DNA of 53,270 nucleotides, the filler included, from Jimgerdemannia flammicorona (Eukaryota), in NCBI GenBank assembly GCA_003990765.1. It is 3 parts of 3 records of this genome, joined end to end, with 100 filler letters (N's around TTAATTAATTAA, not from the genome) between each part and the next. Parts side by side here need not be neighbours in the genome. Positions count along the whole stretch, not along the records: positions 35,584 to 53,270 come from RBNJ01002451.1; 2 more parts are not named here. One strand, written 5' to 3'. This document shows, in pieces, positions 6,131 through 53,270 of this stretch; the stretch's first letter is position 1, and the number at the start of each line of letters is the position of its first letter. The position numbers were made by a program, and so were the translations under genes. The notes beneath the pieces were generated by a model, which saw only the letters and a list, made by a program, of their open reading frames with translations, did not search any database and was not told where the DNA came from.

Positions 6131-6239
6131 ATCAGTTATTATATTACTATTATCTTTTCTCTAAAAACTATACTGTAAATGTTACTAGAAGTTTATATTA
6201 TCTAAATAGTATTAGAGAAAGATCTTTCAAGATCTAAAC

Positions 6240-21283: not shown

Positions 21284-21777
21284 TATGTCCGCAGATAAGT
21301 TTTGGCTTCGATCTCCGGTATCATGAATGGAGAGTTCTTGATTTGAGTGAAGGCCGTAGGGATATTCCGCGCAGAAACTGGATAAGTGATGTGAATTTGT
21401 CGGGATGCTGGATGAGGCACCATTGCTGCGTAGGATGCGGGTGAGCTGGATACGTTCTATACGGGAATAGATGCCATATCAAAAGTACACATGTCACTGA
21501 CTTTTCTTTATTACCAACACTCGGCAAACAGTCATATCATTTACTGCTAAAATAAAGAGGGACTATCCATATTACAACAGCATGTCGCTCATTGCACACA
21601 GGCATTAACGAGATACAGAGGTCAATGTACTCAGAAATGATTAGCATAAGTGGTGACGGTGAATGGGCTCGGCCCAGTGTGTTTTTTGGGGTTTGCGCTT
21701 CCGCGATGACGTCACCAGGCAAACAACCCAGAACAAGGGAGCCACCGTGCCTGATTGCCCCCCAGTTGTTCGAATCC

Positions 21778-23197
21778 ATGGCCGAATTTACCGTCTGTTC
21801 CTCCAACGCACTCGTCATAGACCAGTCCATTCTGTGGGGATGGCTGCTTGGTTTGTCCGTCGACCAGATGGTTGGCTATCGGCAGCCGCGGACGCAAACC
21901 CCCGTTTCGAACAAGGTCCTGAAAAGTTATGTCCTGACGCAATACCGCAACTTTGAGCTCCTCGAGCACTGTCTCCACGAACCTCGCTATTTCTACGAGC
22001 AGCAGTACCTGTTCCCACTGTCCCCGCAAGCCAAGAAGCTGTTAGTCGAGAGGTTGGTCGTTGGTCTGCTATCCGGTTTACAAAAATGACGATGCTAGTC
22101 ACAGAGCGCTCATTATTTGCTCCACCAAGGTACTATGGTTTCGACGAACCCGTGATGCGCGAGCTGCTCGGCAAGAAATTGAGCGCGCGCGCGCGCAAGG
22201 ATCTGGACGAGGTGAGCGAGAAGACCAAAATTCATCTGGGCAGCTGTCGCCGTCAGGTACGACTCTTTTTCCTATCGGGTAGCCTACGGAAAGCTGATTG
22301 ACGACGGAAAAAGGTTTCCGTGGATCTTTTACTCATGTATTCCATAATCACAGTTTGACAACCTGAAATGGATATTGAAGCAAGTAGAAGATTCGGAAAA
22401 TCGTCCCATCATCGAGGAGATTCAAAACTACTTTATGCTTTCCAAAGACCACGCTAGGTAGATGCATTGCCTCTTTGAAGTGGCCGAACTTCATGTCCGT
22501 GAAATGCTCAACCGTTTACAAATGCAACTAACACCCCCTTTTGTGCCTTTTTTTTTTTAGTAAATACGCCCACATCATCTTCATCACCAACAATCGCCTG
22601 GACACCTCCAAACGCAAGCTCGCGCACTTTACCTTCGAGGACTTCGAGTACTGTGGGGCGGTCTTCATGTCTCTCTGGACCTCGAGCACGACGGCAACTC
22701 TCCCCGAGTTCGACACGGCGATGGCATCCGATCTGCGGGACCTGAAGGCAATCCTGCTAAACGAGAAGACGATGTTTGAGTCGTACCGTACGCTGGTGAC
22801 ACAGCAAGCGCAGCGGACGGTGCCCACAGCGACGTTGGAGTGCCTGCAGATGCAATTCAAGACGATTCTGCGTAACGTGCTGACCATCGGGTCGGGTCTG
22901 TCGTCGTCCAAGGAGGTGCGCGATCTCTTCATCGACCTGGTTGAGAAGGTGTGCGAGCCGCTCACAGGAACCGGATGCTCCGCCGCCGAAGTCGGCGTCT
23001 TGTTCGACACCATGATCGAGCAGTTTGCGAACGTGGTTGGTATGACGCAGATGAGACATCTGAAACGGTATGAGGGGTCGCTGGAAAGGCTGTTGAAGGG
23101 GGTCAAATTGGCTGGGATGAAGTTGTATCGTGTTTTCGGCCATACAAGGACGCTTTCCAAGAACCTGGCTATAGTCATTGGGGCGGGTCAATCATGA
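21778..23197 (+). CDS. FIBP: Acidic fibroblast growth factor intracellular-binding protein homolog
   Basis: Exons 21778-22052, 22130-22256, 22354-22457, 22561-23197 with GT-AG introns. Motifs '[43 protein letters not shown]', '[11 protein letters not shown]', '[18 protein letters not shown]'. Confidence 0.9.
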
Positions 23198-25713: not shown

Positions 25714-27385
25714 CTACTTGTTCGAGTTCGCCCATTCAACCCTCAGGATCAAATTGTCATATCCATATCCGTTAATCGCCTGCAACGCCCGGCCAGCATC
25801 ATCCTTAGTCTGGAATGACACGAACGCGAATCCTTTACACACATTAGTCTCGCGATCACGTGCGAGATAAACGCGGGCGATCTGGCCGAACCGCCGGAAT
25901 AGGTCGTGGATGTCGTTCTCGGTGACGTCCTCGGACAAGTTGGTAACGCGAATGGTGGCCGAGTCGTCGCGCTTCTCGCGGCCCATGGATTCGCCAGTGT
26001 TAGAGCCGCCGGCGCCGGCGCCGCGCATGTGAGGGGCGACGTACTTCTTGGGGCCCGTGACAGTCGAGGGTTCGGGAGAAGCGGCGCGGTCGGGAGTGGC
26101 TGGTGAAAGGCAGTGAGGGTGAGGGTGAGGGTGAGATGGGATTTGTTAACAACAGCTAAAAGCCGCTATGCGTTTCTTGAATGTAATCCAGCATGATACA
26201 CAATGAAACTCGTCGCATTGACAATCTCGATTCCAACTTTCTTGTTTCATTTCTCTCGTCCAAAGCCTTCCTACACACCACTGATACACCCAAGAAAGAA
26301 TAAATATAACCAAAAGACTCACCATCTTTGCCCTCCATAATCTCATCCAGAGGTTGCAGCGAACCCTTGTATGGACACTTGGTTGTAAAATGGTCACCCT
26401 TGCAGATACGGCAGAGAATCTTCTTGTTCTTGAGGATGGCGGCCTTGAGCGCCATATCGGGGTCCTCCTCGGCGGTAGCAGCAGCGATGTCAGCGTGCTA
26501 TAATGGTGGGGAGTTCGGCATAGTTAGTGTTCGAGTAGTATTGAGCAGTTAGTCGGATTTCCAATGTCCTCACAACATGCCTGTTGCGTGGTAATGTTCC
26601 GTTCCAGTGGTTCAATCGTGCATCTTGCCAAATGGCACCATAACAAACATAGTACTCTGGCAAAAGTTCGCGCATATCTCCGACCATCATCCAACGCTCG
26701 TTTGTTAACCAACATAATCCGCAAGCTCTGCTCCAGAATACCAGATCAACGACCCCGATGAATACGACCACCGATCCCTGTGCTCCGCAACCCCAAAAAC
26801 ACACCTTGCCGCCCGTCGATGCCAATTTAAGCCCGACATTCTCGCCCACGGTTGTGGTGCTCATATCCGGCCCAGGCTTTTTGTCACGCTCCTCGCCGAA
26901 TTTGGCCCACTTCTTGCGCTCGGCAACAGCCTTGTTCACGTGTTCTGTGATGAGTTTGGTGCGGATGCGGCGGGTGATCTGAAAGGGATGCGATGGTGAG
27001 TGAAGAAAAAAAAAAAAGGGGGGGGGGAGAGAGCAAAGAGCGGTCGGACGTACCTTAACTTTCTTGCCATCGTCATTGAGGCGATATTCGATGATAGTCT
27101 TGATACCGTTTTCGTCGGTGAAGATTTGCGGGGCGAAAGAATCTGAAGGGATAAATTGTTGTAAATAGAACCGCTCGTACAAAATTGCTCAAGTTCAAGC
27201 GGTAAGACAGTTCACTAAATCTAAATGCATCTACCTTCCTCCTCCTCGACTTCGTCAGCCCAGCTGGCTTTGGGTGGTGCTCTACAATTTATGGATCAAA
27301 AGGGTTCTTAGGCTATAGAGTGACTGATTCTCGGTTCAACAACTGGCTCGACAGTGGGGTGCACGTACATTGCATCGACGGGCAT
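25714..27385 (-). CDS. TIF35: Eukaryotic translation initiation factor 3 subunit G, multi-exon
   Basis: 'SWADEVEE', 'DENGIKTIIEYRLNDDGKKVK', 'VAERKKWAKFG', Zn-binding 'CRICKGDHFTTKCPYK', RRM 'TIRVTNLSED...KGFAFVSF...GYGYDNLILRVEWA'. Confidence 0.95.
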
Positions 27386-33974: not shown

Positions 33975-35483
33975 CTATGGCATCAGGCACCTTTCTCTGC
34001 TACCATTCACATTACACAAACAACTCACTACACTTTTCGCGCAGTTTATTGGAGAAAGGCATTAACAGCATATTGAAGAATAAGAGATCTGATAGATGTG
34101 CTAGAGCATTTGACTGACTATAATGAAATTACATTCTAATATCATAAAGGATGATATCATCAAGCTGACATCATCAGATTCATGTCACCAGCAAGGTTAC
34201 ATGCTAGAAAAACCAAGAATATTAGTGAGATCATAATGATTTTGCACTAATTTCAACCCTCTTCAGCTAGTAATATTATAATAGTTATATTAGTCTTTAT
34301 ATTAGTTTATATAAACTCATAAGGATATTATCTTTCTGAGAGTAGAGGGGAAACTGCTGATGGTGATATGACTGGAAATCTGGAAAAAAATCCAGATGTG
34401 ACTGCTGATGGAAGAGCTGGGCAGATGGGCCCAAAGAGGAAGAGGGATTTAGCAGATAGTATGATGGGGCTGGTGATAGCACTATTACTCAAGAAGTCAA
34501 TCTTGGAGTTTGTAGCAACCTTGTGCTTCCAGGGCCTAGCAGTGACAGTGAGGATGGTTCTGGGGATTATCTCAAAGTAAATGATAAGAGTTATCTCTAT
34601 GAAGTTTCTGAAGGGATTAGAGAGAGTAGAGGTGAGTTTTGAGAAGGCAGGTTTACTGGAGGAGGTATTGAAGACTGGAGTAGTTGTAGGAGAGGTGGTA
34701 GTACCTATGGTGCAGTGCTTGAGGTGGGACCCCAGAGTGGTTCAGCTACTGGTGAAGGGGGTGCTAACAGTAATAACTATAGAGATCAGGAGGAGGATTG
34801 AGAAGGTAATAGTAGAATATAGTGATATGGTAGATATTAGATTTCAGATGTGGGAGGGGACTACTTTCAGGACTGAAGATATAGATGTCCAGATTCAGCT
34901 GGCTGAGAAAGAGGCCACTGAGAAGGTGAGCAACTGGCCTTCAGTCATACTGTAGGGAGCTTTCATCTGCAAGGTATTGAGAGTGAAGAGGAGTAAAGAA
35001 GAGGAGGAGGATCCATTGGAGGCTCTAGAAGAGAGGAGTAGAGTAGTCAAGAGAAGAGCTAGTGGGGACTTTTGGATAGCAGTAGGGGACTGGCTGGGTG
35101 TGGTGAGGAGGCCAGATAGAGAGAGAGGTTACTGGGAGAATTTGAAATCTTATTTAGTGGAGAGTATTGGTAATGGTTGGCTCACTGTAGGGTGGGTTTT
35201 AGCAGTGTGGGTAGGGCTGGCTGGACATTGGCTCTTTGTTTTTGAGGAGGGACAACAGATAGATGTCCAGGAGAAGTTGTTAAGGTAGGAGGGGTTGTTG
35301 GGTAATTTGCTGACTAGGTGGTGAATTGGTTGGAGTCCCCAGAGTGGGCAATGTTGCCAACTGATAGAAGGGATCTGTAAACAGAGTGGTGGGCAAGTGG
35401 TGCTTATGTCTGACAAAGTGGTCTTTCATTGCAAGAGAGTGGGGGGGGAAGGAGGTGGTGGTGGGGAGTCCTCTAGGGAGATA
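33975..35483 (+). mobile_element. LINE 5' end and degenerate ORF1 (same family as copies at 975-8890), cut by contig end
   Basis: 5' segment matches the reverse complement of 8760-8890. ORF1-like 34368-34955 'LLLKKSILEFVATL...VEVSFEK...IVEYSDMVDIRFQMWEGTTFRT'. Sequence after ~35050 may belong to another element. Confidence 0.7.
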
Positions 35484-35583: not shown

Positions 35584-35589
35584 AAAAAG

Positions 35590-35625
<36 letters not shown>

Positions 35626-35627
<2 letters not shown>

Positions 35628-36981
35628 ATCAATGAAGTAAAGGTGGCATTACACAAGAAGTTCAAGATGACAGATATGGGTGATGCATCTTTCCTTTTGG
35701 GGATATCCATCATACATTACAGGAGTGTGTATACTATATACCTAAGCCAAGAAGTCTACATTCAGACAATACTTGAGCGATTTGGCATGAGCAAGTGCAA
35801 GCCAGTCGGAACACCGATGGAGATGTCTGTGAGGTTAAAGATGTCTGGAACTATGCTCGAAAATAACAACATCTCCTATCAACAAGCTGTGGGATCCCTC
35901 ATGTATCTTATGCTTGGGATAAGACCTGACATATCGTTTGCAGTCAACAAAGTGGCACAATACTCATCATGCTACAATAATTCGCATTGGATGGTAGTTA
36001 AGCACATTCTTTGATACATCAAAGGAACCACAGACTATACGCTCAGTTTGGGTAGTGATAATGGGCAAAGTGGGAGTACTATATGCCTACTCGGTTCTTG
36101 TAACGCCGATTGGGCCGGTGACTTAGATGACAGAAGGTCTACAACTGGATATATCTTTAAAGTAAACAATGGAGCCATTTTATGGCAAACGCATAAGCAA
36201 CCTTCAGTGGTAACATCCTCTACACAAGCAGAATATCAAGCATTGTCAATGGCAACAAAGGAGGCTATCTGGCTTCAAGAACTGTTAAAGGAGCTGGGAT
36301 ACAAGCAATGGCACTCTACGCTACTCCAGTAAGATAACCAATCAATGATTGCTTTGGTGAAGAACCCTATACATTATGCCAGAATGAAACACATTGACAT
36401 ACAGCATTATTTCATATATAAATGTGTGGAAAACAGCACTATACACCTTGAATACACCCCAACAGAATATATGACAGCAGATTCATTGACTAAAGCCCTT
36501 CCAAAGACAAAGTTTGACTTCTATATGCAAGGAATGGGTATTACAGGACTCTACGCTAATAATTAAGGACAATTCAGGATGAGATAGGATAATAGAGTGA
36601 TAGCAAGCTTCTTTAACATTGATTCCTGCATTGGTGATTTCTACCAACATTACTCATCTACGAATGTTCACATTTCTACTTTTCAACCTATTTTTCGAGC
36701 TTTAAGCAGGCAATTCAGGTATTTTTCGGTTTCTAGATAGTGGTCTGAACATTACAGCGAGATTTGCAGTGGTTATAGCTTAGTATTGCAGTTTGGGAAT
36801 TTGCATATCTCATTGAGTGGGAGTATTGTAATATGTAGGTTACAACTTGATATATGGTGGCGCAGCCCTTCTTGACTACGTCATCATGTAAACATCACTA
36901 ATTGCGATGTATACATAAAAGCACGTAAGAATTAGCAATAAACAGTTAGCTTACTCCCTCCATTCCAAGTATTCCACAACA
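35626..36981 (+). mobile_element. Ty1/Copia retrotransposon 3' part (RT C-terminus, RNase H, PPT, 158-bp 3' LTR 36824-36981)
   Basis: 'FKMTDMG..SFLLGI', 'YQQAVGSLMYL..RPDISFAV', 'ADWAGDLDDRRSTTGY', 'SSTQAEY', 'KHIDI..', 'ADSLTK'. PPT GAGTGGGAG, then T(A)TTG...CAACA. Premature stops. Confidence 0.93.
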
Positions 36982-39900
36982 GATAGGCAGCCCTTGCCAA
37001 ATATTCAAGAAATCCTTACCACCCTTGGAAGTGAAGTCAAATACTATACCACATTAGATCTGTTCTCAGGCTTCCATCAGATTGGTCTCACTCAAGATGC
37101 CAGGGAGAAATCAGCCTTCATCACACCTTATGCTACCTATATCTACTCACAAATGCCATTTGGAACATGTAATGCCCCAGCAAGTTTCTAGCAAATGATA
37201 AACAGAGTCTTCAGCAATGAGATTGGAAAATGGCTCTTTGTCTATGTTGATGATGTGATGATCTTCAGCAACACTGCATGGAAACATGTCAATCACATAC
37301 AGCTAGCCCTCAAGAAGCTCAAGGAGTATGGCCTCTACATCAAGCCCAAGAAATGCAAGTTTGTAGCTCAGGAAATCACCTATCTAGGACACCTCATCAA
37401 CCAGACCAGAATCCACACAGACCCTATGAAGATTGAGGCTGTTGCAGCCTACCCAAGACCCAGAATAACTACAGAAGTCCATGCCTTTCTTGGACTGGCC
37501 AGCTACTACAGAAGGTTCATCAAAGGATACTCCAACATTGCAGCACCTATTTACAAGTTACTGAAGAAGGAAACCAAATTCAAATAGACCAAGGAGTGCC
37601 AAGAAATCTTCAATGAACTCAAGACCAGGTTGACCCAAGCACCTATCCTCAGAAGACCAGACTGGAATCTAGAATTCAACCTGCAGACAGATGTAAGTGC
37701 TATAGAACTTGGAGTAGTCCTAGCTCAGAAGAAAGATGGACATAAATATGTCATCTCCTATACAAGCTGAGGTACCCATAGAGCAGAACAGAACTACAAG
37801 TCATGTAAGCTTAAATGCTTAGCAGTAGTTTGGGCAGTAGACAAGTTCCACTACTACCTAGCCAAGAAATACTTCACCATTTAAACAGACCATTCTGCTC
37901 TTGCCTGGCTATTCCACACACTGAACCCCAAAGGAATATATACCAGATGGATCTACAGGCTGCAAGAGTATAACTGTACTGTCAAGCACCACTCAGGAAA
38001 GACCAACACCAATGCCAATGCACTCTCAAGGACACCCTGAAACACCCCCATCAAGACTATTTAATATAAATAAGGAGCTATACTATAAATTAATCAGCTA
38101 TCTTGGGCAGTGAAAGATACCCAACTACCTCGAACCCTGGACAATCACCATCATCAACCAGACTTAGAAACAGTTTGAACTAGACAATACTATACTCAGA
38201 AAAGAAGGAAAGCTAGTAAATACCTGAATACAAGAAGTATCAAGTAATGAAGGAAGTACATGAGCAAGAATACTTAGGAGAAACCAACATATATAACAAG
38301 GCAAGAAGAACCATGTGGTGGCCCAAGATGGAAGAAGACCTGTGCCAATTTGTCAAAGGGTGTGATAAGTGCCAAAAACAGAAACAAGATCAGTAAGACC
38401 AGGTATCCAGATCATCAAGAATTGAGCCTATCCTCTTCCACCACATCACAATAGATATCATTGGACCATAACCAGTAACACTATCAGGAAACCACTATAT
38501 TATAGTTATTGTAGACCTCTTCACCAAATGGATAGAGGCAGGAGCATTACAAGAAGCCAATGCCCTCTCTATAGCTGACTTCCTGCACTGAGAAATCATC
38601 TGCCACTACAAGACACCAAAGCAAATCACAACAGACCACAGAATGGAATTTGTCAATGGATTCTACAAGATAATGTATCAGAAATACAAGATCCAGTACA
38701 TCAAGACCACTACATACCACCCTCAAGGAAATGGACAGACAGAGAGAACCAACAAGACCCTCAAGAACATCCTAGCAAAGATCTCAGAGATATATGAGAA
38801 TTGGGATAACTATCTCCCAACAGCCCTCTCTGTCCTATGAGACATATGGTCACAGAGCACACACTTTACCCCAAGAGAGCTGCTCTTTGGAGAAGAAGAT
38901 TCTGATGGAACCTCAGCTATAAATCTAGACCTAACTTAGAGATGAGTTGATGCAGAAATCTGGAGACTACACCAAATCAGGAAGAAGGCTGAAGATTACA
39001 TTACCAAGTCATAAGCACTAATAAGGAAGCCCTAGAACCCATCTGAATTGGAGAAAAGGTTCTACTGTATCGAAATATAGTAGAAGCCTCATGGTCATGA
39101 AAACTGGAGCTCAAATGGGAAGGACACTTCTATATGCAAGATATATGAGAACTACCTTCTGGCTTAAAAAAATCTCAGGGACCATACTGCCTACTACAGT
39201 ACATAGGAATAGACTCAAGAAGTACCATGAACCTATACAAGAGAAGCAAAATGTGATGACCGCCTGTAAGGTTCTAGTCCACAAATCATAACAGCATATT
39301 CCATGACCAGCAGGCTATCTGTCTGGACTATTCTCTAAGAGATATAGCACTGGCAACTACTCATCATGAGATTTTCAAAGTCAGAGGAGTTTGAACTGTC
39401 AACTGATTGGTCAAGATCAGAATCAGGCTCTTGCTCTATATGAAGGGAGTGACCCTTCACCATCACACCAAAATATAAAGAGAAGACACTAGCCCATAAA
39501 TACTACTTTTTGACCCCTTGCCAGAGGTTATGGGATCAGCAAATTTTTCAGGACTGGACCAATGAATAAGAATGCTCGAGAAGATCCTTATTTAGGAGGA
39601 AGATGTAATGGTGACCCCAGAATAATGACATCAGCACAGGAGACAGCCTTTCCTTGTAAGCCACTAGATCAGAGCACAAGAAGATCATATGGTATATGAG
39701 ATGAGCAATGATGACCAACTGTGAGTCATTGTGACCACAGTACAAACATCCTGAGGAATATAAAAGAAGGATCAAGGAACTACAGTAGCAGCAACCAATA
39801 ACAACCAACAATCCCAAAATAGCTCAAAGACTTACCACAAATGAAATGCCTGCTGCCCACCAAATGTCAAGGTCAAGGAATCACCAAGGTATCTCAGTCA

Positions 39901-41103
39901 AGGAAAAGATATTCCAAGACATCAGAAGAGCCATGAGGACCTGCTCAAGAAGGACTCCTAGTATCAACCTAGGTACTGCAGATCTCTATCACTTTATCCT
40001 CTACTACTGTGAAATGGAAACAAGGATCACTATTGCTACCAAATGCCTCCAAATGTGGCAGGAGTACAAAATAGGAAACCTCCTCTGCCGGGAGTTCCCA
40101 CAGGCCAGCACTCAAGAGCTACAAGATGCCACTCCTATGGATATATGTGAAACAAGGATAGCTAAGAAGATCCATCAGATCTTTAGGCATGCACTATAGT
40201 TGATTCCCAACTTGGAGTATGTTAGAGTCTCAGATTTCAGAGACCTGTCATCTCACCATATCAATGTACTAAAAGCCAGGGTGGCTACAGAAGCCCAGTC
40301 CACTATCACCCTCAATAGTGATAAAGTAGAAGACTTCTGACACCCCATCCTCCAAGACAACTCAGACCAATTCCAGCAAGGATTGATCTCAGTATTCCAA
40401 GGCCCAAGTATCAGGGTTAGATCTCCCCAAGACCCTACATTTGTCCCCTGTTTTGTGGAAGAGAAACTTATAGACTGGAGAGCTCCAGACCTCCTTCTTA
40501 CTGCCGAACATGATGATATCATCAGCGATGACACTATCCTGCATGATATCGAAGCATATGAAAATGATGAATTCATAGACCTCATCTCCTTCGAAGATAT
40601 CCTGACCTCTGATGATGAGGATGAAGCTGCCATGATCCTGAACTTTCTGCTCTAAGTTCTTTGTTACACTGGATAATACCAGCACTGGTATTTGATGTAA
40701 TACTAAATAATGCCAGAACTGGTATTCTGATATGACACTGAATTATACTAGCATCCTGAACCTGTACAACCATCAGTGCCAACCCTGGAACTTAGTAGTT
40801 TTAGCTATTGGAATTTATATTTAGCTTAATATTATAGCAACCATTTGAATTATATTTTATATAAATACCCTCTTATTTCCTCTGAAATAAAGTCAGTTCC
40901 TCTTAGTGCAATATACACACTTCCTTATAAGCAATCTAAGAGATAACAAGACAGTTTAAAGATAAGAAGTTTGAGGACTATAAGACCTTGGGAAGGCACT
41001 CCAATAAGAACTTGCTTATAACAAACTTGAGTTAGTCTAAGAGATATACATATCTTGAAGAGAATCTGGCATATTTAAAGAACTCAGCGACCACTATGTG
41101 ACA
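36982..41103 (+). mobile_element. Ty3/Gypsy element copy 1, 3' part (RT-RNase H-integrase + 3' LTR), interrupted by the Copia insertion
   Basis: 'LDLFSGFHQI', 'MPFG', 'YVDDV', '[16 protein letters not shown]', 'HPQGNGQTERTNKTLK'. Colinear with 46926-51194. PPT AGGAGGAAGA at 39594-39603. Confidence 0.93.
39604..41103 (+). repeat. 3' LTR of Gypsy copy 1 (1500 bp), containing decayed LTR-ORF 39846-40655
   Basis: TGTAATGG...GTGACA termini, directly after the PPT; aligns with the other three LTRs. Confidence 0.92.
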
Positions 41104-41700
41104 CTATCTATATAATATTAGTATAATTCACACTAGCAGTCTATATATTTCTTACTTTATCAAGTAGCTTAAGTATATCTATTTGTAGTACTAGTGTAAA
41201 ATTCTGAGTAAGTATCTGATCTCTACTAATTAACTATTAATAGTAAATCATTATGATAAATTGGTATAAAAATCTGGCAAGCATAGCCAACTCTCTATAA
41301 TATATCTTTACAAACTTAGCTATAAACATATAGAACAAGAAACAATACTAATAGAGAAAATACAAATATTCAAAATAGATTTATTATTACTATAAAAGCT
41401 AATAAAGAAGAAGATTCTAGAGATGAAAATTTCAGACCAAAAAGGACTTGATCTGCCCAACATGAAGATGGGTATAATAATCTATCTTTTATATAAAATT
41501 GTCAAAAGCAGACTCTTAATATACCAATCCTTAATATGATGACTAATTCTCAATACAAATACTCTCTATATATATACTGACTCTTATAATAGATTGAAAA
41601 AATGATGAAACAGACTACAGAGACTAGGATAAAGATAATAGTAAAGGTGATGATTATATATATATAACTGTAATAATATTATTAGATATATTTTCTAAAT
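41104..41700 (+). mobile_element. Possible hAT transposase C-terminal remnant (AT-rich, very decayed)
   Basis: ~41170-41215 reads 'SICSTSV..SE*V', similar to the hAT dimerisation motif (ipatSa.sErvfS). Confidence 0.3.
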
Positions 41701-42259
41701 AATATCTTTATATTATCAAAATATTATACCTATTGTAGTTACAGAAACTCAGATGATATACTGCTCATCTAGTTATAAAAAGTAAATATATATATACATA
41801 TATATATTAGTTATTAGTATAAATTTATTTATCTTCTTATACTATTCTAATAATATATAGATTTTTATATATCATTATTTATTAATTATTTAAGTCCACA
41901 ATGACCTTTTCTCAGTTATCTCTGATAGTATCTATAAAACCTTACTATATGAGATTATGAGAGATATAAATAATTGTGATAATATTATTTTTTACAAGAT
42001 ATTAATTATCAATATTTCTATTATATATATAATATATATTTTTAAGGTTAACTTTAATTCTATTTTCTATAGCTCCATCAAGAGCTTATAAGAAATCAAT
42101 ACTATTTAAAGGAATATTTACATAAAAATATTTCATAATATAATATTTAATATCATAGTATTACTAATTCCTTTAGTTTATAATAAGATAATTAGTAAGA
42201 AGTACTGAAATATAATAAAGAACTTCTATCTCAATATTACTCTTCAATACTATATATAT

Positions 42260-43884
42260 TATAACAGTGACCCCAGAATGATGATATCAGTATAAGAGAC
42301 AGTCTTTCTTTACAAGCCACCAGATCAGAGCACAAGAAGATTATATGGCATATGAGATGAGTAATGATGACCAACTATGAGTCATTGTGACCACAGTACA
42401 AGCATCTTGAGGAATATAAAAGAAGGATCAAGGAACTGCAGTAACAGCAATCAACAAGACACACCAATTCCAAAATAACTCAAAGACTCACTATAAACAA
42501 AATGCCTGCTATCCACCAAACCTCAAGGTCAAGAAACTACCAAGACACCTTGGTAGAAGAAAGGATATTCCAAGACATCAGAAGAGCTATGAGGACCTGC
42601 TCAAGAAGGACTCCTAGTGTCAACCTGGGTACTGGTGACCCTTATCACTATATTCTCTACTACTGTAAAATGGGAACCAGGATCACCATTGCTACTGAAT
42701 GCCTCCAAATATGACAGGAATATGAAATAGAAAACCTCCTCTGCCAGGAGTTCCCACAGCCCAGCACTCAAGAGCTATAAGATACCACTCCTATAGATAT
42801 ATGCAAAACAAGGATAGCTAAGAAGATTCATCAGATCTTCAGGCATGCAACATGGTTGATCCCCAACTTGGAGTATGTTAGAGTCTCAGATTTCAGAGAC
42901 CTGTCATCCCACCATATCAATGCACAAGAAGCCAGGGTGGCTACAGAAGCCCAGTCTACTATCACTCTCAATAGTGATGAAGTAGAAGACTTCTGGCATC
43001 CTATCCTCTAGAACAACCCAGACCAATTTCTACAAGGGGCAATCTCAGTATTCCAAGGCCCAAGCATCTAGGTTAGACCTCCAAAAGACCTCACATTTGT
43101 TCCCTATTGTATGGAAGAGAACCTCATAGACTGGAGAGCTCCAGACCTTCTTTCTACCATCAAATATGATGATGTTATCAGCGATGATGTCATCTCATGT
43201 AATATTGAAGTATGTAAAATGCATGACATATGCGAGATACGTGACCTATGTGATGACAACAACAATGACAAATTCATGGACCTCATCTCCTTTAAAGACA
43301 TCCTGACCTCTGATGATGAAGCTCCCATAGTCTTGAATATTCTGCTCTAAGTCTCTTAGTTACACTGAATAATACCAGCACTGGTATTTGATATAACACT
43401 GAATAATGCCAGCACCAGTATTTGATGTAATACTGAATAATGCTAGCACTGGAATTTGATGTAATACTGAATAATGCCAGCACTGGTTTTCTGATGTGAT
43501 ACTAAATTATACCAGCATCCTGAACCTGTACAACCATCAGTACTGACCCTGGAACTTAGCAGTTTTTTCTGACTTGGCATTTTATTTTAGTTATTGGAAT
43601 TTATATTTAGCTTTATATCTTAGCAACCATTGAATTACATTTTGTATAAATACCCCTCTTATTTCCTCTAGAATAAAGTCAGTTCCTCTCAGTGCAATAC
43701 ACACACTTCTTTGCAAGCAATCTAAGAGATAACAAGACAGTTAAAGATAAGAAGTTTGAGGACTATAAGACCTTGGGAAGGTACTTCAATAAGAACTTGC
43801 TTATAACAAACTTGAGTTAGTCTAAGAGATACACCTTGAAGAGAATCTGGTATATTTGAAGGACTCAGCAACTACTACATAACA
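42260..43884 (+). repeat. 5' LTR of copy 2 (1625 bp), decayed LTR-ORF 42502-43350
   Basis: T(A)TAAC...ATAACA termini; followed by PBS; colinear with 49562-51194. Confidence 0.93.
43361..43520 (+). repeat. 34-bp tandem array inside the LTR (also ~40665-40760, ~50668-50830, ~53121-53250)
   Basis: Unit ACACTGAATAATGCCAGCACTGGTATTTGATGTA, ~3-5 copies, with internal inverted core ATGCCAG-CA-CTGGTAT. Confidence 0.9.
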
Positions 43885-44010
43885 ACTTGGTACCCATTGG
43901 CTGGTGATTCAAGATGAATCCCTCACTTTCAAGCTGAAAAATAAACAACCCTAACAATAACTACCCTTACTACAAGAGTCACCCCTATAAGAATTCTAGA
44001 CAAGATAGAA

Positions 44011-47000
44011 ATGTGCCCTCCCACATTCTATGGATATACTACTGAAGAGTCAATTCTGATCTTCATTGAAGACTTTGAACAATTCACTGCCATTCTTGCC
44101 CTTGGTGTAGATACACAATTAGCCCTTCTACCAATCAGCCTCAGAGAACCTACCAGAGACAAGTTTAATACAGTCACTATTACTGATGCTGGTGCAGCCA
44201 AACTTGCCAAAATGAAGGCCTTCCTCAGAACAACATACTATACTGAAGAGATCAAGCAAGCTCTTAAGGATCAACTCAATACTATCTGCCAGAGACTTAG
44301 TAAAGATCCCAACTCATTCTATACCCGAATCTGCCACCAGATTGTCTTGGTTGGCTATAATGACCACCTTAAGGAACAAATAGCAGATTCAACCTTTCTT
44401 AAAGAAGTTTACTCTGAAATTGCCCTAACAATCCAGTCTACCCCAGCTGTACTGACCCTTGATCAGAAAGTGGTCTTTGTACAGAGATATTGGACTGCCA
44501 GACACCCTGCGAAAATAACTGGCATCAAGATGGAGCCATCAAAGCCAACTAGTATCATACTTACTACAGTTGTAAACAGACAACCATCCCCACCTACTCC
44601 CAAGATAACCAAAGCTGACCCAGTGGAGGAACTCAGCAAGTAGTTCACCAAGATGACTACACACCTTAGTGATATTGTTAGAGAAGTCCAAAGTGCCAAC
44701 AGAAGACCAGTGCAGAGATTTGCAGCCGCTACAGAAGAACATAATATCACATACTTCAGATAGGGAGAAGAAGGCCACTATTCAAAGAATTGCATGACTA
44801 AAACAAGATGCAAAACCCAACCAAGCAATGCTAGCAGAACTAGAGAACAAATCAATACAGTAGTCATCAAGGAGATTGGTGACACTGATGATGAAGAATA
44901 CTATGAGGAGCTTAAATTCTACCCTATTACTAAAGGTACTAGAACCTGGTCCAAGCCCTATGACAAGAAGAGCAACAGCAAGCCAGTTGGAAGACCAAAG
45001 AAGACCCCAGCTATTACTATTCAAAGCAAGACTCAACCTGAGGAGATTCATCAAGATATGGAGTTAGATGAAGCTACCCACCAAATCATTGAAGGCACTA
45101 CTCCAGTCTCAGGAGAAAGTGAAAGCAAGAAGGAACAGAAGCTGTACAAGACCAAGATCCATCAGTATGATATTTATAAGGACCTCAAGGAACAGAAGGT
45201 CAATGCCACTTTTGGACAACTAGCTGAAGTCCCTGCCTTCAGACGGCAGTTGAGAGTAGGACTTGCAACTACTGCCAAGAATCAAGAGTACAAGATTATA
45301 GAAGCTCATAATGCACAGAAAGAATCTGAAAACTCAGATATAGAATCCAAAGACCAGCACAAGACATCAGCTTATACCCCATGTCAGATTGAAGACTGTA
45401 TCTTTGATGCCATCATTGATACCAGTGCTAGAGGATGCCTCATGAGCAAGAAGACAATTGACTGCCTAGGTTGGGACATTGAAGAGTCCACCAAGATGGT
45501 CTATGTTATAGCAGATGGTACATGAGCTACCCTCCTTGGCAAAATCCAAGAGGTCCCCATCAAGAAAGGAGGAGCTACCATCTCAGTAGATGTGATTGTT
45601 ACAAGTGCCACCAACTATGACATCCTCATTGGCAACCAATGGCTTTACAAGGCCAAGGCCATCATTGACCTCAATGCCCAGAAGATGCAGATCAACTACA
45701 GAGGAAGAAAAGTACAAGTCTCTATCAATGTCTATAAAGGAGTTCTACCAGACATGGAGGAAGGAGATGAAGAGGACACAGAGGTCTTCATGTACTCAGT
45801 GAACAAGAACAAGAACAAGACACCCAAGGTCACAGATGAACAGTGATACAACAAGATCATTGATGGCTATGCCCCTCAGGGAAGATGCCCCCATGATACT
45901 AGGATGTATGTACTGCTCTAAACATCTGAATGACTACTGGTCCTGTATCAGTGAAGTCAGGAAAATCTGCTAACAGAAACACAAGCAAGAAGCTGCTGAA
46001 GCAAAAAGGAAAGCCAAAGAAGATGACCAGCCCTGAGAGCTTCAGGCTGATAGTGACAATGAGGTGGAACAAGAATCAGATATCACTCTCAAGGTCAAGA
46101 AGTTTCATCCTGAAGCCAAAATCCCAGAATATAAGACTGAAGGAGCCATAGGAATAGACCTTGCCAGCATTCAAGATGCTACCCTCAAACTACAGACCAC
46201 CACTCTACTTGGCACTAGAATTGGAGTGAAGCTGCCAGAAAACCATACTGGAATTATCAAGACCAGGAGCAGTCTGGCCAAAAGCAAAATCTCAGTTGAA
46301 GGAGGAGTAATTAACTCTGATTACACTGGTGAGATCTTCCTCATAGTCAGGAATCACAACCCCACCACTCCATTCAAAGTCAAGAAGCATGACAGAATTG
46401 GCCAGATGCTGATCCATGAAATCAAACCTAAGATCACTGAAGCCATCAAACTCATTAAGACCAAGAGAGGAGAACAAGGCTTTGGATCTACTGGAAGAGG
46501 AGCCTATGCCACTACTAAGATTACTGAACTTAAGCACCAGAAAGATAAGGACCAGAATAAGCACACATATACCATTAGAGAAAAATTTTCCCTGGAAGAA
46601 CAACTTATCAAGATTCTGTACCCGAACAAAGAAGTACTTGCTACAGACTTTAGGGATATCTACAATCAAGAACCCAAGTACTACCATAAAGTTGAAACTA
46701 GTGATACCAAGCCCATCTATCAGATAGCCAGACCCATACCACCTGCCTACAGAGAATGGCTGCAAGCAGAGCTCAAGGAAATGGAAGAAGCTGGAATCAT
46801 CAAGCAAGCTATCAGCCCCTGGGCTTCACTCATTGTCCTTGCCCCAAAGAAAGGAAGCAAGCCTGGAGAGTTTGCACTAAGACTCTGCATTGACTACAGG
46901 AAGCTCAATGCTATCACCAAGAAGGATAGACAGCCCTTGCCAAATATTCAAGAAATCCTTACCACTCTTGGAAGCAAAGCCAAATACTACACCACCTTGG

Positions 47001-49258
47001 ATCTGTTCTCAGGCTTCCATCAGATTGGTCTCACTCAAGATACCAGTGAGAAATCAGCCTTCATCACACCTGATGCCACCTATATCTATCTGTGAATGCC
47101 ATTTGGAATGTGCAATACCCCAGCAAGTTTCCAGTGAATGATGAACAGAGTCTTCAGCAATGAGATTGGAAAATGGCTCTTTGTCTATGTTGATGATATA
47201 ATCATCTTCAGTAATATGGCACAGGAATATATCAATCACATACAGCTAGTTCTCAAGAAGCTTAAGGAGCATGGCCTCTACATCAAGCCCAAGAAATGCA
47301 AGTTTGCAGCTCAAGAAATCACCTATCTAGAACACCTCATCAATTAGACCAGAATCCACACAGACCCCATAAAGATCAAGGCTATTGCAGTCTACCCAAG
47401 ACCCAGAACAACCACAGAAGTCCATGCCTTCCTTGGACTGGCCAGCTACTACAGAAGATTCATCAAAGGATACTCCAACATTGCAGTATCTATCTATGAG
47501 CTACTGAAGAAGGAAACCAAATTTAAATAGACCAAGGAGCATCAAGAAATCTTCAATGAACTCAAGACCAGGTTGACCCAAGCACCTATCCTCAGAAGAC
47601 CAGATTGGAACCTAGAATTCATCTTGCAGACAGATACAAATACTATAGGACTTGGAGCAGTCCTAGCTCAGAAGAAAGATGGACATGAATATATCATCTC
47701 CTATACAAGCCAAGATACCCATGGAGCAGAACAGAACTATGAGTCATGCAAGCTTGAATGCTTAGCAGTAGTCTGGGCAGTAGACAAGTTCCACTACTAA
47801 CTAGCCAGGAAATACTTCACCATTCAAACAGACCATTCTGCTCTTGCCTGGCTATTCCACACTTTGAACCCCAAAGGAATATATGCCAGATGGATCTACA
47901 GACTGCAAGAGTATGACTGTACTGTCAAGCACTGCTCAGGAATAATCAATACCAATGCTGATGCACTCTCAAGGACACCCTGAAACACTCCCATCAAGAT
48001 TACTCAATATGAATAAGGAGCTATACTATGGATTATTCAGCTATCTTAGGCAGTGGAAGATGCCCAACCACCTTGAACTCTGGACAATCATGATCATCAA
48101 CTGGACTTGGAAACAGTTTGAACTAGACAACACTATACTCAGAAAAGGAGGAAAACTAGTAATATCCAAACATAAGAAGTATCAAGTAATGAAGGAAGTA
48201 CATGAGCAAGGATACTTAGGAAGAACTAACACATACATATGTCAAGGCAAGAAGAACCATGTGGTGGCCCAAGATGGAAGAAGACCTGTACCAATTTGTG
48301 AAAGGGTGTGACAAGTGCCAAAAACAGAAACAAGATCAGCAAGACCAGGAACCCAGGTCATCAAGAATTGAGTCTATCTCCTTCTGCTACATTGCAATGG
48401 ATATCATTGGGCCACTACCAGTAACACTATCAGGAAACTGCTATATTATATTTATTGTAGACCTCTTTACCAAATAGATAGAAGCAGGAGCATTACAAGA
48501 AGCCAATGCCCTCTCTATAGCTGACTTCCTATACCGAGAAATTATCTGCCACTACAAGACACCAAAGCAAATCACAACAGACCATGGCACAGAATTTGTC
48601 AATAGATTCTATGAGATAATGTATCAGAAATACAAGATCCAGCACATCAAGACCACTGTGTACCACCCTCAAGGAAATGGACAGATAGAGAGAACCAACA
48701 AGACCCTCAAAAACATCCTGGCAAAAATCTCAGAGACATATGAGAATTGGGATAATTATCTCCCAACTGCCCTCTCTGTTCTACGAGACATACAGTTACA
48801 GAGCACACACTTTACCAAGGGAACTGCTCTTCGGAGAAGAAGATTCTGATAGAACCTCAGCTACAAACCTAGACCTAACTTGGAGACAGGTTGATGCAGA
48901 AATCCAGAGACTACACCAAATCAGGAAGAAGGCTGAAGATTACATTATCAAGTCACAAGTGCTGATAAGGAAGAATGTAGAAAAGAATCACAAGACCCTA
49001 GAACCCATCCAAATCAGAGAAAAAGTTCTACGGTATTGAAATATGGTAAAAGCCTCATGGTCACAAAAACTGGAGCCCAAATGGGAAGGACCCTTCTATG
49101 TGCAAGATATCAAGGGAACTACCTTCTGGCTTAGAAAAATCTCAGGGACCATACTGCCTACCATGGTACATAGGAACAGACTCAAGAAATATCATGAACC
49201 TATATAAGAGAAGTAAAACATAATGACCACCCATGAGGTTCTAGTCCACAAATTGTAA
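44011..49258 (+). pseudogene. gag-pol polyprotein of Gypsy copy 2 (multiple stops and frameshifts)
   Basis: Gag from 44011; knuckle 'ITYFR*GEEGHYSKNC' (~44745-44793); protease 'AIIDTSA'; RT 'LCIDYRKLN', 'YVDDI'; RNase H 'LQTD..IGLGAVL'; integrase 'WWPKM..C..CQ', 'MDIIGPLP', 'TDHGTEF', 'GNGQIERTN', GPF motif 'KLEPKWEGPFYV'. Confidence 0.93.
46088..46495 (+). CDS. dut: Trimeric dUTPase domain inside Gypsy pol, between protease and RT
   Basis: All five motifs recognisable: 'AIGIDL', 'RSSLA', 'GVINSDYTGEI', 'DRIGQML', 'RGEQGFGSTG'. Continues in frame into RT. Confidence 0.95.
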
Positions 49259-49561
49259 CAGCATGTCCCATGACCAGCAGACTATCTGTCTGGACCATTC
49301 TCTAAGAGATATGGTACCAGCAACAACTTATCTATAAGACTTTCAAAGCCAGAGGAGTTCAAACCATCAACTGATTAGTCAAAATCAGAATCAGGCCCTT
49401 GCTCTATATGAAGAGAGCAACCCTTCACCATCATGCCAAAATATAAAGGGAAGACACCAGCCCATAAACACCACTTTTCAACCCCTTGCCAGAGGTTATG
49501 GGATAAGCAAATTTTTCAGGACTGGACAGATGCTTAAGAAGATCCTTATTCAGGAGGAAGA

Positions 49562-51194
49562 TATAATGGTGACCCCAGAATGATGACATCAGTATAGAAG
49601 ACAGTCTTTCTTTACAAGCCACCAGATCGGAGCACAAGAAGATCATATGGCATATGAGATGAGCAATGATGACCAACTATGAGTCATTGTGACCATAGTA
49701 AAAGCATCTTGAGGAATATAAAAGAAGGATCAAGGAACTACAGTAACAGCAATCAACAAGACCCACTAATCCCAAAATATATAGCTCAAAGACTTACTAC
49801 AAATGAAATGCCTGCTGCCTGCCAAACCTCAAGGTCAAGGAACTACCAAGGCACCTCAGTTGAAGAAAGGATGTTCCAAGACATCAGAAGAGCTATAAGG
49901 ACCTGCTCAAGAAGGACTCCTAGTGTCAACCTGGGTATTGGTGACCCTTATCACTATATCCTCTACTGCCGTAAAATGGGAATCAGGATCACCATTGCTA
50001 TCAAATGCCTCCAAATGTGACAAGAATACGAAATAGAAAACCTCCTCTGCCAAGAGTTCCCACAGGCCAGCACTCAAGAGCTACAAGATGCCACTCTCAT
50101 GAATATTTGCAAAACAAGGATAGCTAAGAAGATCCATCAGATCTTCAGGCATGCACCATAGTCAATTCCCAACTTAGAGTATGTTAGAGTCTCAGATTTC
50201 AGAGACCTGTCATCCTGCTGTATCAATGTACTAGAAGCCAGGGTGGCTACAGAAGTCCAGTCCACTATCACCCTCAATAGTGATGAAGTAGAAGACTTCT
50301 GGCATCCTATTCACCAGGACAACTCAGACCAATTTCTGTAAGAGTTGATCTCAGTATTCTAAGGCCCAAGCATCCAGGTTAGACCTCCCCAAGACTCTAC
50401 ATTTGTTCCCTATTTTGTGGAAGAGATCCTCATAGACTGGAGAGCTCCAGACCTCCTTTCCGCCATCGAACATGATGATGTCATCAGCAATGATATCATT
50501 CTACATGACATTGAAGCATATAAAATACATGACATATGCGAGATACATGACCTACACAATGACAATGAAAATGATGAATTCATGGACCTCAACTTCTTTG
50601 AAGATATCCTGACTGCTAATGATGAAGCCTCCATGGTCCTGAACATTCTGCTCTAAGTCTCTTGGTTATATTGAATAATGCCAGCACTGGCATTTGATAT
50701 AATACTGAATAATACCAGCACCAGTATTTGATATACATAACACTGAATAATACCAGCACCAGCATTTGATATAACACTGAATAATGCCAGCACTGACATT
50801 CTGATGTAACATTGAATTATACCAGCATCCTGAACCTGTACAACCATCAGTACCGACCCTGGAACTTAGCAGTTTTTTCTGACCTGGCATTTTATTTTAG
50901 TTATTGGAATTTATATTTAGCTTTATATCTTAGCAACTATTGAATTACATTTTGTATAAATACCCCTCTTATTTCCTCTGGAATAAAGTTAGTTCCTCTC
51001 AGTGCAATATACACATTTTCTGGCAAGTAATCTAAGAGATAATAAGATAGTTAAAGATAAGAAGTTTGAGGACTATAAGACCTTGGGAAGGTACTCAAAT
51101 AAGAACTTGCTTATAACAAACTTGAGTTAGTCTAAGAGATATACTTTGAAGAGAATCTGACATATTTGAAGGACTCAGCAACTACTATATGACA
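49562..51194 (+). repeat. 3' LTR of copy 2 (1633 bp), decayed LTR-ORF 49808-50656
   Basis: Directly after PPT AGGAGGAAGA; ends ATGACA; colinear with the 5' LTR. Confidence 0.93.
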
Positions 51195-51894
51195 ATATAT
51201 AATAATTGACTTAAAGTTATATCCATTTTCCAATTATTATATATAACTATTAGCTTCTAATTTCTTTATTTACTATAGTATATATATTTGTAATAATTTT
51301 TTATTTTATTTTTTACAGTATTATTAAGAACTAATTAATTAAATATTTGTATATTTCTGTCAGCTTCATTATCTGGTTATAAAATATAGCAAATACTGAA
51401 AATGGATAAAATATATATAAGAGACCCATTATGATAAAAAAATCAACTAATCTTGCCTTCTCAATAATTCTTTAAATATAGTTCCAAATGAAGCTCTAGA
51501 CCAAGATAAAGATTCCAATGAAACCTTAGATAATATTAAAGATTTGTCTAATAAGATTAACTTTGTAATAATAAATAAGTAATATTTGCTATCTCTTTCA
51601 GAATTATATAGTTTTTCATAGAGATCTTAAATATTATAAGGAATTTGATATATATATAAATAGAGTCATTTTCTTAATAACTTCATATACAAATTGTACT
51701 GTAATCACTTTGTGAACTTAATGAATTTAGTATGGATTATAAACTTAATAATTAGATTTCAGTACTATTATTACTTTATATATATAATAAATTGTGAACT
51801 TGATAATTTTGCTATTATTCTCTTCTTTTATTTTTTACTATATAATTATTTATCTATACAAAAACCTACTAAGATTATTACTTCTCACTAATAT

Positions 51895-52028
51895 ATATGA
51901 AATCTCTCTACAAATATATAAAACCTCTCTACTGATATATATAAAATCTCCCTATTGATATATATGTATAAAATCTCTCTACTGATATACATAAACCTCT
52001 CCACTAATATATATATATATAACCTTCT
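51895..52028. repeat. Degenerate AT-rich tandem repeat (~23-28 bp unit, ~5 copies)
   Basis: Recurring ATAAAATCTCTCTACTGATATAT-like units. Confidence 0.7.
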
Positions 52029-52031
52029 TAT

Positions 52032-53270
52032 TGTAACGGTGACCCCAGAATGATGACATCAGCACAGGAGATAGCCTTTCTTTACAAGCCACCAGATCAG
52101 AGTACAAGAAGATCATACGGCATGCGAGATGAGCAACGATGACCAACTGTGAGTCATTGTGACCACAGCACAAGCATCCTGAAGAATATAAAAGAAGGAT
52201 CAAGGAACCGCAGTAGCAGCAGCCAACAAGAACCCCAATCCCAAAATAGCTCAAAGACTTATCACAAATAAAATGCCTGCTGCCTGCCAAACCTCAAGGT
52301 CAAGGAATCATCAAGGTATCTCAGTTGAGGAAAGGATGTTTCAAGACATCAGAAGAGCCATGAGGACCCACTCAAGAAGGACTCCTAGTATCCATCTGGG
52401 TACTGCAGACCCCTATCACTTCATCCTCTACCGCCGTGAAATGGAAACAAGGATCACCATCGCCACCGAATGCCTCCAAATGTGGCAGGAATGCGAAATA
52501 GGAAATCTCCTCTGCCGGGAGTTCCCACAGGCCAGCCCTCAAGAGCTACAAGATGCCACCCCCATAGACCTACATGAGGCAAGGACAGCAAAGAAGATCC
52601 ATCAGATCTTCAGACATGCACCATGGTCGATCCCCAACTTGGAGTATGTTAGAGTCTCAGACTTCAGAGACCTGTCATCCCACCGCATCAATGCACTAGA
52701 AGCCAGGGTAGCTACAGAAGCCCAGTCCACTATCACCCTCAACAGCAAAGAAGTAGAAGACTTCTGGCACCCTATCCTTCAGGACAACCCAGACCAGTTC
52801 CTGCAAGGGTTGATCTCAGTATTCCAAGGCCCAAGCATCCAGGTCAGACCTCCCCAGGACCCCACATTTGTCCCTTACTTTGTGGAAGAGAACCTCATAG
52901 ACTGGAGAGCTCCAGATCTTGTTCCCGATTTCCCCGCCGAACGTGATGACGTCATCGGCGATGACGTCATCCCGCACGACATACCCTAAGCACACGAACC
53001 GCGTGACGAAGTACGCGAAACGCGCGACCTGCATGAAGAGTTCGCGGATCTCATCTCCTTCAGTGATGATGATGATGAAGCTCCCATGATCCTGAACTTT
53101 CTGCTCTAAAAGTTCTTTGTTACACTGGATAATGCTAGCACCAGTATTCTCATGTAACACTGGATAATGCCAGCACCGGTATTCTGAGGTGACGCGAAAT
53201 TGTTCCAGCACTGGTATTTTGATGTGGTACTAAATAATGCCAGCCCTGGAACTCAGTAGTTTTAGTTATT
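52032..53270 (+). repeat. LTR of a third, less decayed copy (5' or solo LTR; runs off the window end)
   Basis: Starts TGTAACGGTGACCCCAG with no PPT upstream. Retains CpGs lost in the other LTRs. Confidence 0.92.
52273..53109 (+). CDS. LTR-encoded protein of unknown function (~278 aa; one in-frame TAA at 52987-52989 in this copy)
   Basis: 238-aa open frame; after one TAA the same frame continues 'AHEPRDEVRETRDLHEEFADLISFSDDDDEAPMILNFLL*', the same C-terminus as in the other three LTRs. TATAAAAG at 52187-52194 and TGAGTCA at 52150-52156 upstream. Confidence 0.8.

Follow-up and report, generated by a model that had tools for sequence, protein, structure and literature searches.

A probable accessory gene within the long terminal repeats of a dUTPase-bearing Ty3/Gypsy retrotransposon of Jimgerdemannia flammicorona

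Introduction

Accessory genes set 'complex' retroviruses apart from simple retroelements; among long terminal repeat (LTR) retrotransposons they are rare and have been described between the LTRs. The window analysed here is a stretch of 53,270 nucleotides from Jimgerdemannia flammicorona (GCA_003990765.1), made of three parts of three records that were joined end to end and need not be neighbours in the genome, with positions 35,584 to 53,270 coming from RBNJ01002451.1. All coordinates count along this window. An earlier reading made without database searches (the sequence-only reading) had proposed that a protein-coding gene is carried inside the LTR of a fungal Ty3/Gypsy element near the end of the window. 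The analysis described below makes it probable that the LTR of a dUTPase-bearing Ty3/Gypsy family carries a lineage-specific accessory gene, wholly in U3, between the polypurine tract (PPT) and the presumed main promoter. The assignment of the open reading frame (ORF) to U3 is conditional on a predicted transcription start.

The repeats and the element between them

The last 14 kb of the window hold a direct repeat of 1.5-1.6 kb in four copies, called A, B, C and D. Similarity among the copies is 82-90% within 300-nt repeat families, and the columns of an alignment of all four are on average 83% identical. Repeat search and alignment returned four LTRs with the same coordinates as the sequence-only reading had given, and the region between B and C was found to be the interior of one element:

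39604..41103, + strand: LTR A, 3' LTR of a 5'-truncated element of the same family (repeat search and alignment)
42260..43884, + strand: LTR B, 5' LTR of a full-length but decayed element (repeat search and alignment)
43885..49561, + strand: internal region with gag, aspartic protease, dUTPase, reverse transcriptase (RT), RNase H and integrase (IN); PPT at its end (49552-49561)
49562..51194, + strand: LTR C, 3' LTR of the same element as B; B/C identity 88.6%
52032..53270, + strand: LTR D, cut by the window end; no PPT upstream; least decayed copy

The similarity opens at TGTAACGGTGACCCC, with the decayed forms T(G/A)TAA(C/T)(G/A)GTGACCCC, and closes at ...(T/A)(G/A)ACA, the 5' end being TGTAA (TATAA in the decayed copies B and C) and the 3' end ACA. 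The PPT AGGAGGAAGA (39594-39603 and 49552-49561) directly abuts the starts of LTRs A and C, and LTR B is followed by ACT and then by a sequence resembling a primer-binding site (PBS), TGGTACCCATTGG, which starts at 43888, i.e. 3 nt past the end of the LTR. The window contains no tRNA gene with which the PBS-like TGGTACCCATTGG could be compared. The edges that had been fixed earlier from the PPTs and the PBS at 43888 are thus upheld, since AGGAGGAAGA abuts A and C and the limits of similarity agree. Of the flanking ATAT repeats, their presence stood, with ATATAT on both sides of element B-C; their weight did not, because the flanks are AT-rich, low-complexity DNA in which ATATAT says little as a target-site duplication. 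With the PBS-like sequence after B, the PPT before C and pol between them, B and C form the LTR pair of one element. LTR D is either a solo LTR or a 5' LTR, because a PPT is absent upstream of it.

The 5.7-kb interior between B and C has many stops and at least one frame change, and was translated with the stops written as X. In frame 1, Pfam profiles identified an aspartic protease (PR) at residues 499-595 and Integrase_H2C2 plus rve at 1449-1595; in frame 2 they identified a dUTPase at 743-870, RVT_1 at 995-1148 and RNase H at 1216-1343. The dUTPase (PF00692) between PR and RT was matched with E = 9.9e-26 and 8.9e-27 (window positions 46037-47095). For gag there was no Pfam match in the read-through translation, and a remnant of a CCHC-type zinc knuckle was seen by eye. 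A chromodomain was matched in none of the interior frames, the region after IN being heavily decayed. The domain order PR-RT-RNase H-IN, together with direct LTRs, TG...CA ends, a PBS-like sequence and a PPT, is that by which Ty3/Gypsy elements are defined, and the element is a dUTPase-bearing Ty3/Gypsy LTR retrotransposon of the layout gag-PR-dUTPase-RT-RH-IN. The truncated element that ends in LTR A retains RT, RNase H and IN at about 36.9-38.7 kb.

The reading frame and signals within the LTR

Each LTR contains the same ORF, which begins 242 nt into the repeat and ends about 530 nt before its end (about 450 nt in A). Within the window the ORF occurs at the four LTRs only:

39846..40655, + strand: LTR ORF copy A, 810 nt, 269 codons, 2 internal stops
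42502..43350, + strand: LTR ORF copy B, 849 nt, 282 codons, 4 internal stops
49808..50656, + strand: LTR ORF copy C, 849 nt, 282 codons, 4 internal stops
52273..53109, + strand: LTR ORF copy D, 837 nt, 278 codons, 1 internal stop

Translation confirmed that the four spans share one frame without a frameshift, as had been read earlier from lengths of 810, 849, 849 and 837 nt. The ORF also lies wholly inside a Ty3/Gypsy LTR, as proposed, with B and C bracketing the PR-dUTPase-RT-RNase H-IN interior. The frame had, however, been taken to be intact in each copy, which overlooked the 2, 4, 4 and 1 internal stops of A, B, C and D, respectively; the further suggestion that each insertion deposits a complete gene holds for none of these four, all of which have premature stops. 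Over the ORF stretches, the +1 frame contains 0-4 stops and each of the other five frames 8-30. The single stop of copy D, a TAA at 52987-52989 with which a 21-nt tandem duplication begins, removes the acidic tail of the protein; the longest stop-free stretch in any of the LTRs, 265 codons, is in LTR D.

Around the ORF, candidate regulatory signals were mapped, and TGAGTCA, the upstream TATA box, the tandem array, the second TATA box (43645) and AATAAA (43672) were all recovered where the sequence-only reading had placed them:

42378..42422, + strand: upstream promoter-like block of LTR B (TGAGTCA at 42378-42384; TATAAAAG at 42415-42422)
52150-52194, + strand: upstream promoter-like block of LTR D (TGAGTCA at 52150-52156; TATAAAAG at 52187-52194)
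43364..43517, + strand: tandem array of LTR B, 4.5 units of 34 nt
50668-50827: tandem array of LTR C, 4.6 copies of a 34-35-nt unit
53118-53244: tandem array of LTR D, 3.6 copies of a 34-35-nt unit
43645..43677, + strand: second TATA box and AATAAA of LTR B (TATAAATA at 43645-43652; AATAAA at 43672-43677)

TGAGTCA and TATAAAAG are invariant in the alignment of all four LTR copies. The distance from TATAAAAG to the ATG is about 80-86 nt, with TGAGTCA 30 nt further upstream. The second TATA box stands 20 nt ahead of AATAAA and about 1.2 kb from the first; these two signals are the presumed promoter of the genomic RNA and a shared poly(A) signal. Between the ORF stop and the second TATA box sits the tandem array, each 34-nt unit of which contains an imperfect 16-nt palindrome around CCAGCACTGG, read by eye. 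In its layout the array looks like an array of sites for a dimeric transcription factor. Its copy number is uneven, at about 2 in A, 3.6 in D and 4.5-4.6 in B and C.

Evidence for coding selection

Insertions and deletions inside the ORF were compared with those in the remainder of the LTR, in an alignment that was built codon-blind. All seven gap runs inside the ORF are multiples of three (6, 3, 48, 3, 15, 9 and 6), whereas only 2 of the 16 runs outside it are (Fisher p = 1.5e-4). Differences were also counted at codon positions 1/2/3 for pairs of copies, including an intact relative on a metagenome contig, L001, which is described below. They number 101/66/141 between D and L001 (p = 3e-10), 30/22/60 between A and D (p = 4e-6) and 38/30/40 between B and C (p = 0.41). 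The last pair served as a post-insertion neutral control: B and C were identical at insertion, so that their differences arose afterwards and are expected to be neutral. The ratio of nonsynonymous to synonymous divergence (dN/dS), which had been put forward earlier as a check, was estimated by the Nei-Gojobori method and came out lower in the lineage pairs than in the paired LTRs, at 0.25 for A versus D and 0.16 for D versus L001, where dS is saturated at about 2.2 and the value is only an upper-bound style estimate, against a mutation-bias baseline of 0.48 for B versus C. These patterns argue that the ORF is the remnant of a genuine protein-coding gene and not a chance frame, and that the gene was under purifying selection during lineage divergence, with neutral decay once a copy had inserted.

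A different explanation is that the ORF arose by chance or is a relic that does nothing for the element, such as a piece of host sequence that was captured and drifts neutrally. The stops in all four copies are what such a relic would show. A further point in its favor is a McDonald-Kreitman-like test within the window, in which private changes of B and C were set against changes shared by subfamilies; the counts of nonsynonymous to synonymous changes (N:S) were 49:23 for private and 18:14 for shared changes (p = 0.27), a comparison blurred because parallel CpG hits make the C or G retained in D mimic private T>C and A>G changes. A neutrally drifting relic, however, would not account for indels in multiples of three inside the ORF only, nor for a between-lineage excess ordered as position 3 > 1 > 2 beside a flat B/C pair. 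The indel and codon-position tests have already largely refuted this explanation, and we regard it as highly improbable.

The protein and its relatives

The predicted protein has about 270-340 residues, starts with MPA or MPP and is helical in its N-terminal two-thirds. Alignments show the conserved motifs HQ(I/V)FRHAPW, WNP(I/L)LxDNPDQ(F/W), F(Q/E)GPP and PYF(V)EEN(L)IDWR. The tail is strongly acidic and variable in length, with a net charge of -14 to -25, carries the hydrophobic-acidic motifs DLISF, DLINF and DLITF, and ends in (I/V)LNF. In close members the N-terminus is basic (+8 in the relative P0002, and +5).

Domain searches of the protein were negative. Pfam gave no match for the ORF at E <= 0.01 and nothing relevant for 11 family members at E <= 5, and a PDB profile search returned 0 matches at E <= 10. 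The best feature score in Atlas was 0.83, under the lead level of 0.9. Foldseek found nothing in PDB at E <= 0.001, and the wide VIA-align search reached a best Z of 3.4, the models being too poor to show a new fold. Longer fused forms were absent among 2424 candidates, which is weak evidence. The blanks in Pfam, PDB and Foldseek agree with the sequence-only reading, in which no domain had been recognised, and by these searches the protein is an orphan without a recognisable domain. That no domain, fold or annotated relative was found by Pfam, PDB, Foldseek or VIA-align would also suit a functionless relic.

Relatives were found in metagenomes. A word-indexed search of 5.8 billion clusters yielded seven proteins (P0001-P0007) at E <= 0.001 among 194 candidates. 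One of the relatives is complete and intact, with 271 residues and 80% identity over 98% of the query, and P0001 is 91% identical to copy D over the first 238 residues of D. A profile search of 1.84 billion representatives returned five proteins, three of them new and more distant (214, 342 and 200 residues). The 342-residue relative is about 35% identical to D and has an MPP start and the core motifs, with LNF close to where the alignment ends. P0010 is encoded on a 4848-bp contig. The contigs of P0001-P0007, from jgi or ena metagenomes, measure 778-1625 bp, and none exceeds the LTR length of 1625-1633 bp; short contigs of this kind would be expected from collapsed assemblies of repeats.

At the DNA level, 380 pattern matches led to one locus, L001, a metagenome contig of 1345 bp with an intact ORF of 323 codons; further loci were found in 0 of 65 viral contigs and 0 of 22 contigs from prokaryote genomes. 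The protein of L001 is 59% identical to copy D over the first 239 residues (tblastn), and its best segment against the intact relative P0002 is 62% identical. L001 opens at GAATATAAAAG, keeps the A-rich context of the ATG and the core of the ORF, and continues after the ORF with TGTATAAATACCCCTC, then AATAAA, then a U5-like stretch. Intact forms of 271, 323 and 342 residues thus share a start, core motifs and an end down to about 35% identity, which speaks against a chance or relic frame. The proposal of a protein-coding gene is in this way borne out by four independent kinds of evidence: indels, codon positions, intact relatives and a conserved layout.

Decay of the copies

The changes that separate the copies are mostly transitions. 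Among private changes, C>T or G>A account for 30 of 43 in A, 39 of 55 in B and 28 of 38 in C. The ratio of observed to expected CpG (CpG o/e) is 0.05-0.11 in LTRs A-C and 0.04 in the interior, whereas D stands at 0.51 and the neighbouring genes at 1.08. LTR D has 37 CpG and a GC content of 48.8%, while LTRs A-C have 3-7 CpG and a GC content of 39-40%. The decay is transition-dominated and of the deamination type, with CpG loss, and it accounts for the 1-4 nonsense codons of each ORF copy. Since the neighbouring host genes have a CpG o/e of 1.08, the CpG decay is restricted to the repeats, and it is very uneven among copies of one family.

Repeat-induced point mutation (RIP) was at first read as the cause, as the private C>T changes lie mostly at CpA. 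It was set aside, for the classical indices do not indicate it in the LTRs, where TpA/ApT is 0.78-0.86 and (CpA+TpG)/(ApC+GpT) is 1.40-1.53.

Elsewhere in the window, the 6 kb at 2000-8000 have a GC content of 34%, a very pronounced strand asymmetry with a GC skew of -0.43 to -0.49, and a CpG o/e of 0.01. Here TpA/ApT is 1.23 and (CpA+TpG)/(ApC+GpT) is 0.98, and there is no ORF of at least 150 aa. This stretch looks like an older repeat that has decayed further and is more RIP-like than the LTRs.

Proposed expression and function

From the arrangement of the signals, a two-promoter expression cassette is plausible. The mRNA of the gene would start about 30-40 nt past the first TATAAAAG, have a leader of 86 nt and end at AATAAA, a signal that it would share with the genomic RNA. 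The genomic RNA would start about 30 nt past the second TATA box, which would put AATAAA at its start or slightly upstream; the signal would in this way lie outside the 5' end of the genomic RNA yet be active at its 3' end. R would then be very short, U5 would measure about 180 nt, and the ORF and everything upstream of it would be U3. Each LTR, solo LTRs included, would be a complete transcription unit and, with U3 copied to either end of the element, the gene would be present in full in every new insertion and every solo LTR. Such a cassette fits the retention of the two TATA boxes, of the sequence around the ATG and of AATAAA in a family with a protein identity of about 59%.

Most retroviral 3' accessory genes are expressed from transcripts driven by the 5' LTR. 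By this route the gene could be real and have no promoter of its own: its product would be made from element transcripts that hold the ORF in their 3' part, such as a spliced subgenomic RNA that starts in the 5' LTR. In that case TATAAAAG and TGAGTCA, upstream of the ORF, would serve the main promoter as enhancer or U3 elements. Under the established replication scheme, U3 is at the 3' end of every genomic RNA, so that the ORF would be transcribed anyway, and the transcription start past the first TATA box is a predicted one. The position and conservation of TATAAAAG are less easily accommodated: it is invariant in four decayed copies and kept at about 59% protein identity, it precedes the ATG by 86 nt, with no further ATG in the leader of B, D or L001, and it is about 1.2 kb from the second TATA box, far for a core-promoter element there. 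Expression without a promoter of its own is considered rather unlikely.

The two TATA boxes could also be assigned in another way, with the genomic RNA starting at the first one. R would then be about 1.3 kb long and gag would be preceded by the ORF as a leader ORF, a position for which ORF1 of Ogre and ORF0 of L1 offer parallels. TATA box and TGAGTCA are arranged as in a normal U3 promoter, and the ORF begins at the first ATG downstream. This assignment, however, leaves the conserved second TATA box, 20 nt before AATAAA, without a role, demands that the poly(A) signal of the 5' LTR, about 1.4 kb from the cap, be ignored, and implies an R of a length that is not the rule in LTR retrotransposons. 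On this balance it is improbable.

Several points, beside the saturated dS and the N:S counts given above, weigh against reading the ORF as an accessory gene with a promoter and a role of its own. All four copies are pseudogenes, none being now intact. No transcript evidence was found, there being no RNA run among the 20 sequencing runs that a search returned; these were metagenomes of rhizosphere, root or soil and a coded organism, each sharing fewer than half of the sequence words. The LTR context of the relatives is suggested by shared landmarks, and L001 reaches neither LTR end; the 34-bp repeat array is absent from L001, where the tail of the ORF is also not conserved. The basic N-terminus is not kept in the divergent P0010 (net +1). 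AlphaFold2 models are poor, with a mean predicted local distance difference test (pLDDT) score of 40.3 from 8 sequences and 52.6 from 11, and they lend support to no specific biochemical function.

By weak inference only, the product of the LTR gene is probably a nuclear regulatory or adaptor protein that aids the element's own expression. It may, more specifically, be an activator like Tas or Tax that acts through the 34-bp repeats, with their palindromes, which separate the ORF from the second TATA box; this is a tentative guess, made because an acidic tail with hydrophobic motifs and palindromic repeats ahead of the main TATA box recall retroviral transactivators. A fuller version, speculative and on the whole doubtful, would have the LTR as an autonomous cassette in which TGAGTCA and the TATA box are driven by host factors, all full elements and solo LTRs express the acidic regulator, and this switches on the main promoter or shields it from silencing through the 34-bp repeats, an independently evolved Tas/Tax-like circuit that solo LTRs would spread genome-wide.

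A gene wholly inside an LTR is doubled in copy number per element, survives LTR-LTR recombination as part of a solo LTR, and may be expressed independently of gag-pol. If the proposal is true, solo LTRs would be potential trans-acting loci, beyond cis-regulatory relics, and the gene would define a tractable new family of orphan proteins with which to study fungal transposons against host silencing. Annotation pipelines that mask LTRs before gene calling would miss such genes.

Comparison with known systems

The closest positional analogue is sag of mouse mammary tumour virus (MMTV), an ORF of about 300 codons in the U3 of a long LTR and hence present in both LTRs, as is proposed for the ORF here. 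sag is a gene of a vertebrate retrovirus, and its product is a membrane glycoprotein superantigen. Here, in contrast, the host is not a vertebrate, and the protein is acidic and by eye has no hydrophobic segment. Lentiviral nef, foamy-virus tas/bet and tax/rex of human T-cell leukaemia virus (HTLV) are similarly 3'-terminal accessory genes in or beside U3. Foamy viruses use a second promoter for their regulatory gene, and tandem repeats in the U3 of HTLV respond to Tax; these two promoters and U3 repeats resemble the two TATA boxes and the array found here. These genes, however, only overlap U3 or precede the PPT, while the ORF here starts 242 nt inside the LTR. Searches of Pfam and PDB sequences gave no homology to the Sag, Nef, Tas or Tax families.

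Other gag-pol elements also have lineage-specific extra genes, whose function is regulatory or unknown: the additional ORFs (aORFs) of plant Ty3/Gypsy elements, the extra ORFs of bdelloid elements and CERV of Cer1. In the portions available of the reports on them, aORFs are described between the LTRs, before gag or between pol and the 3' LTR (PMC7264820, PMC5408684, PMC10309623). The phrases 'within the LTR', 'in the LTR' and 'inside the LTR' are all absent from the plant aORF review (PMC7264820). Unlike the aORFs, the gene here is in the repeat itself and not in the internal region by which aORFs are located.

Cassandra, Helenus and Ajax come nearest among retrotransposons to a precedent for a gene-like unit with a promoter of its own in the LTR, a promoter that is predicted in the present case; their LTRs carry small-RNA units duplicated with each insertion, according to two reports (10.1101/2023.07.14.548913, PMC10886601). 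Those units are 5S-like RNAs with internal promoters for RNA polymerase III, in plant elements of the type of terminal-repeat retrotransposons in miniature (TRIM), without gag-pol. Here, by contrast, a protein-coding ORF preceded by a TATA box lies in an autonomous-type element, and the unit would not be of the Cassandra type because it is an ORF of 270-340 codons under coding selection.

As to the element itself, a dUTPase between PR and RT is known from the Gypsy element PosPlaTy3-5 of Postia placenta, and dUTPases occur also in elements of Phanerochaete chrysosporium and in Tmt1 of Tuber melanosporum, as stated in the accessible part of PMC2864245; the PR-RT position of the dUTPase here matches that of PosPlaTy3-5. 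That part of PMC2864245 mentions no LTR ORF, and its Figure 3 marks an 'add. ORF' whose position was not seen. In the open-access literature, as far as its texts were available, the term 'LTR ORF' turns up almost only papers on MMTV, and no report was found there of an LTR retrotransposon with a protein gene kept by selection inside its LTR.

Neighbouring sequence

Just upstream of the truncated Gypsy copy there is a fragment of a Ty1/Copia element, with RVT_2 at about 35613-35823 and a weak RNase H-like match at about 36126-36372. The Copia fragment, at 35600-36400, and the Gypsy copy form a nested or juxtaposed cluster of transposable elements (TEs).

Two host genes were recognised near the TE cluster:

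21556-22089, + strand: FIBP-family protein, PF05427, E = 1.8e-13
26490-27188, - strand: eIF3g, PF12353, E = 1.6e-26

By their domain matches, the FIBP-family and eIF3g genes confirm a eukaryotic host. At about 34900-35100, the read-through translations show long runs of stop-type triplets and of AAG/AAA codons, which suggest that simple repeats of a microsatellite or poly-A-like kind separate the host genes from the TE cluster.

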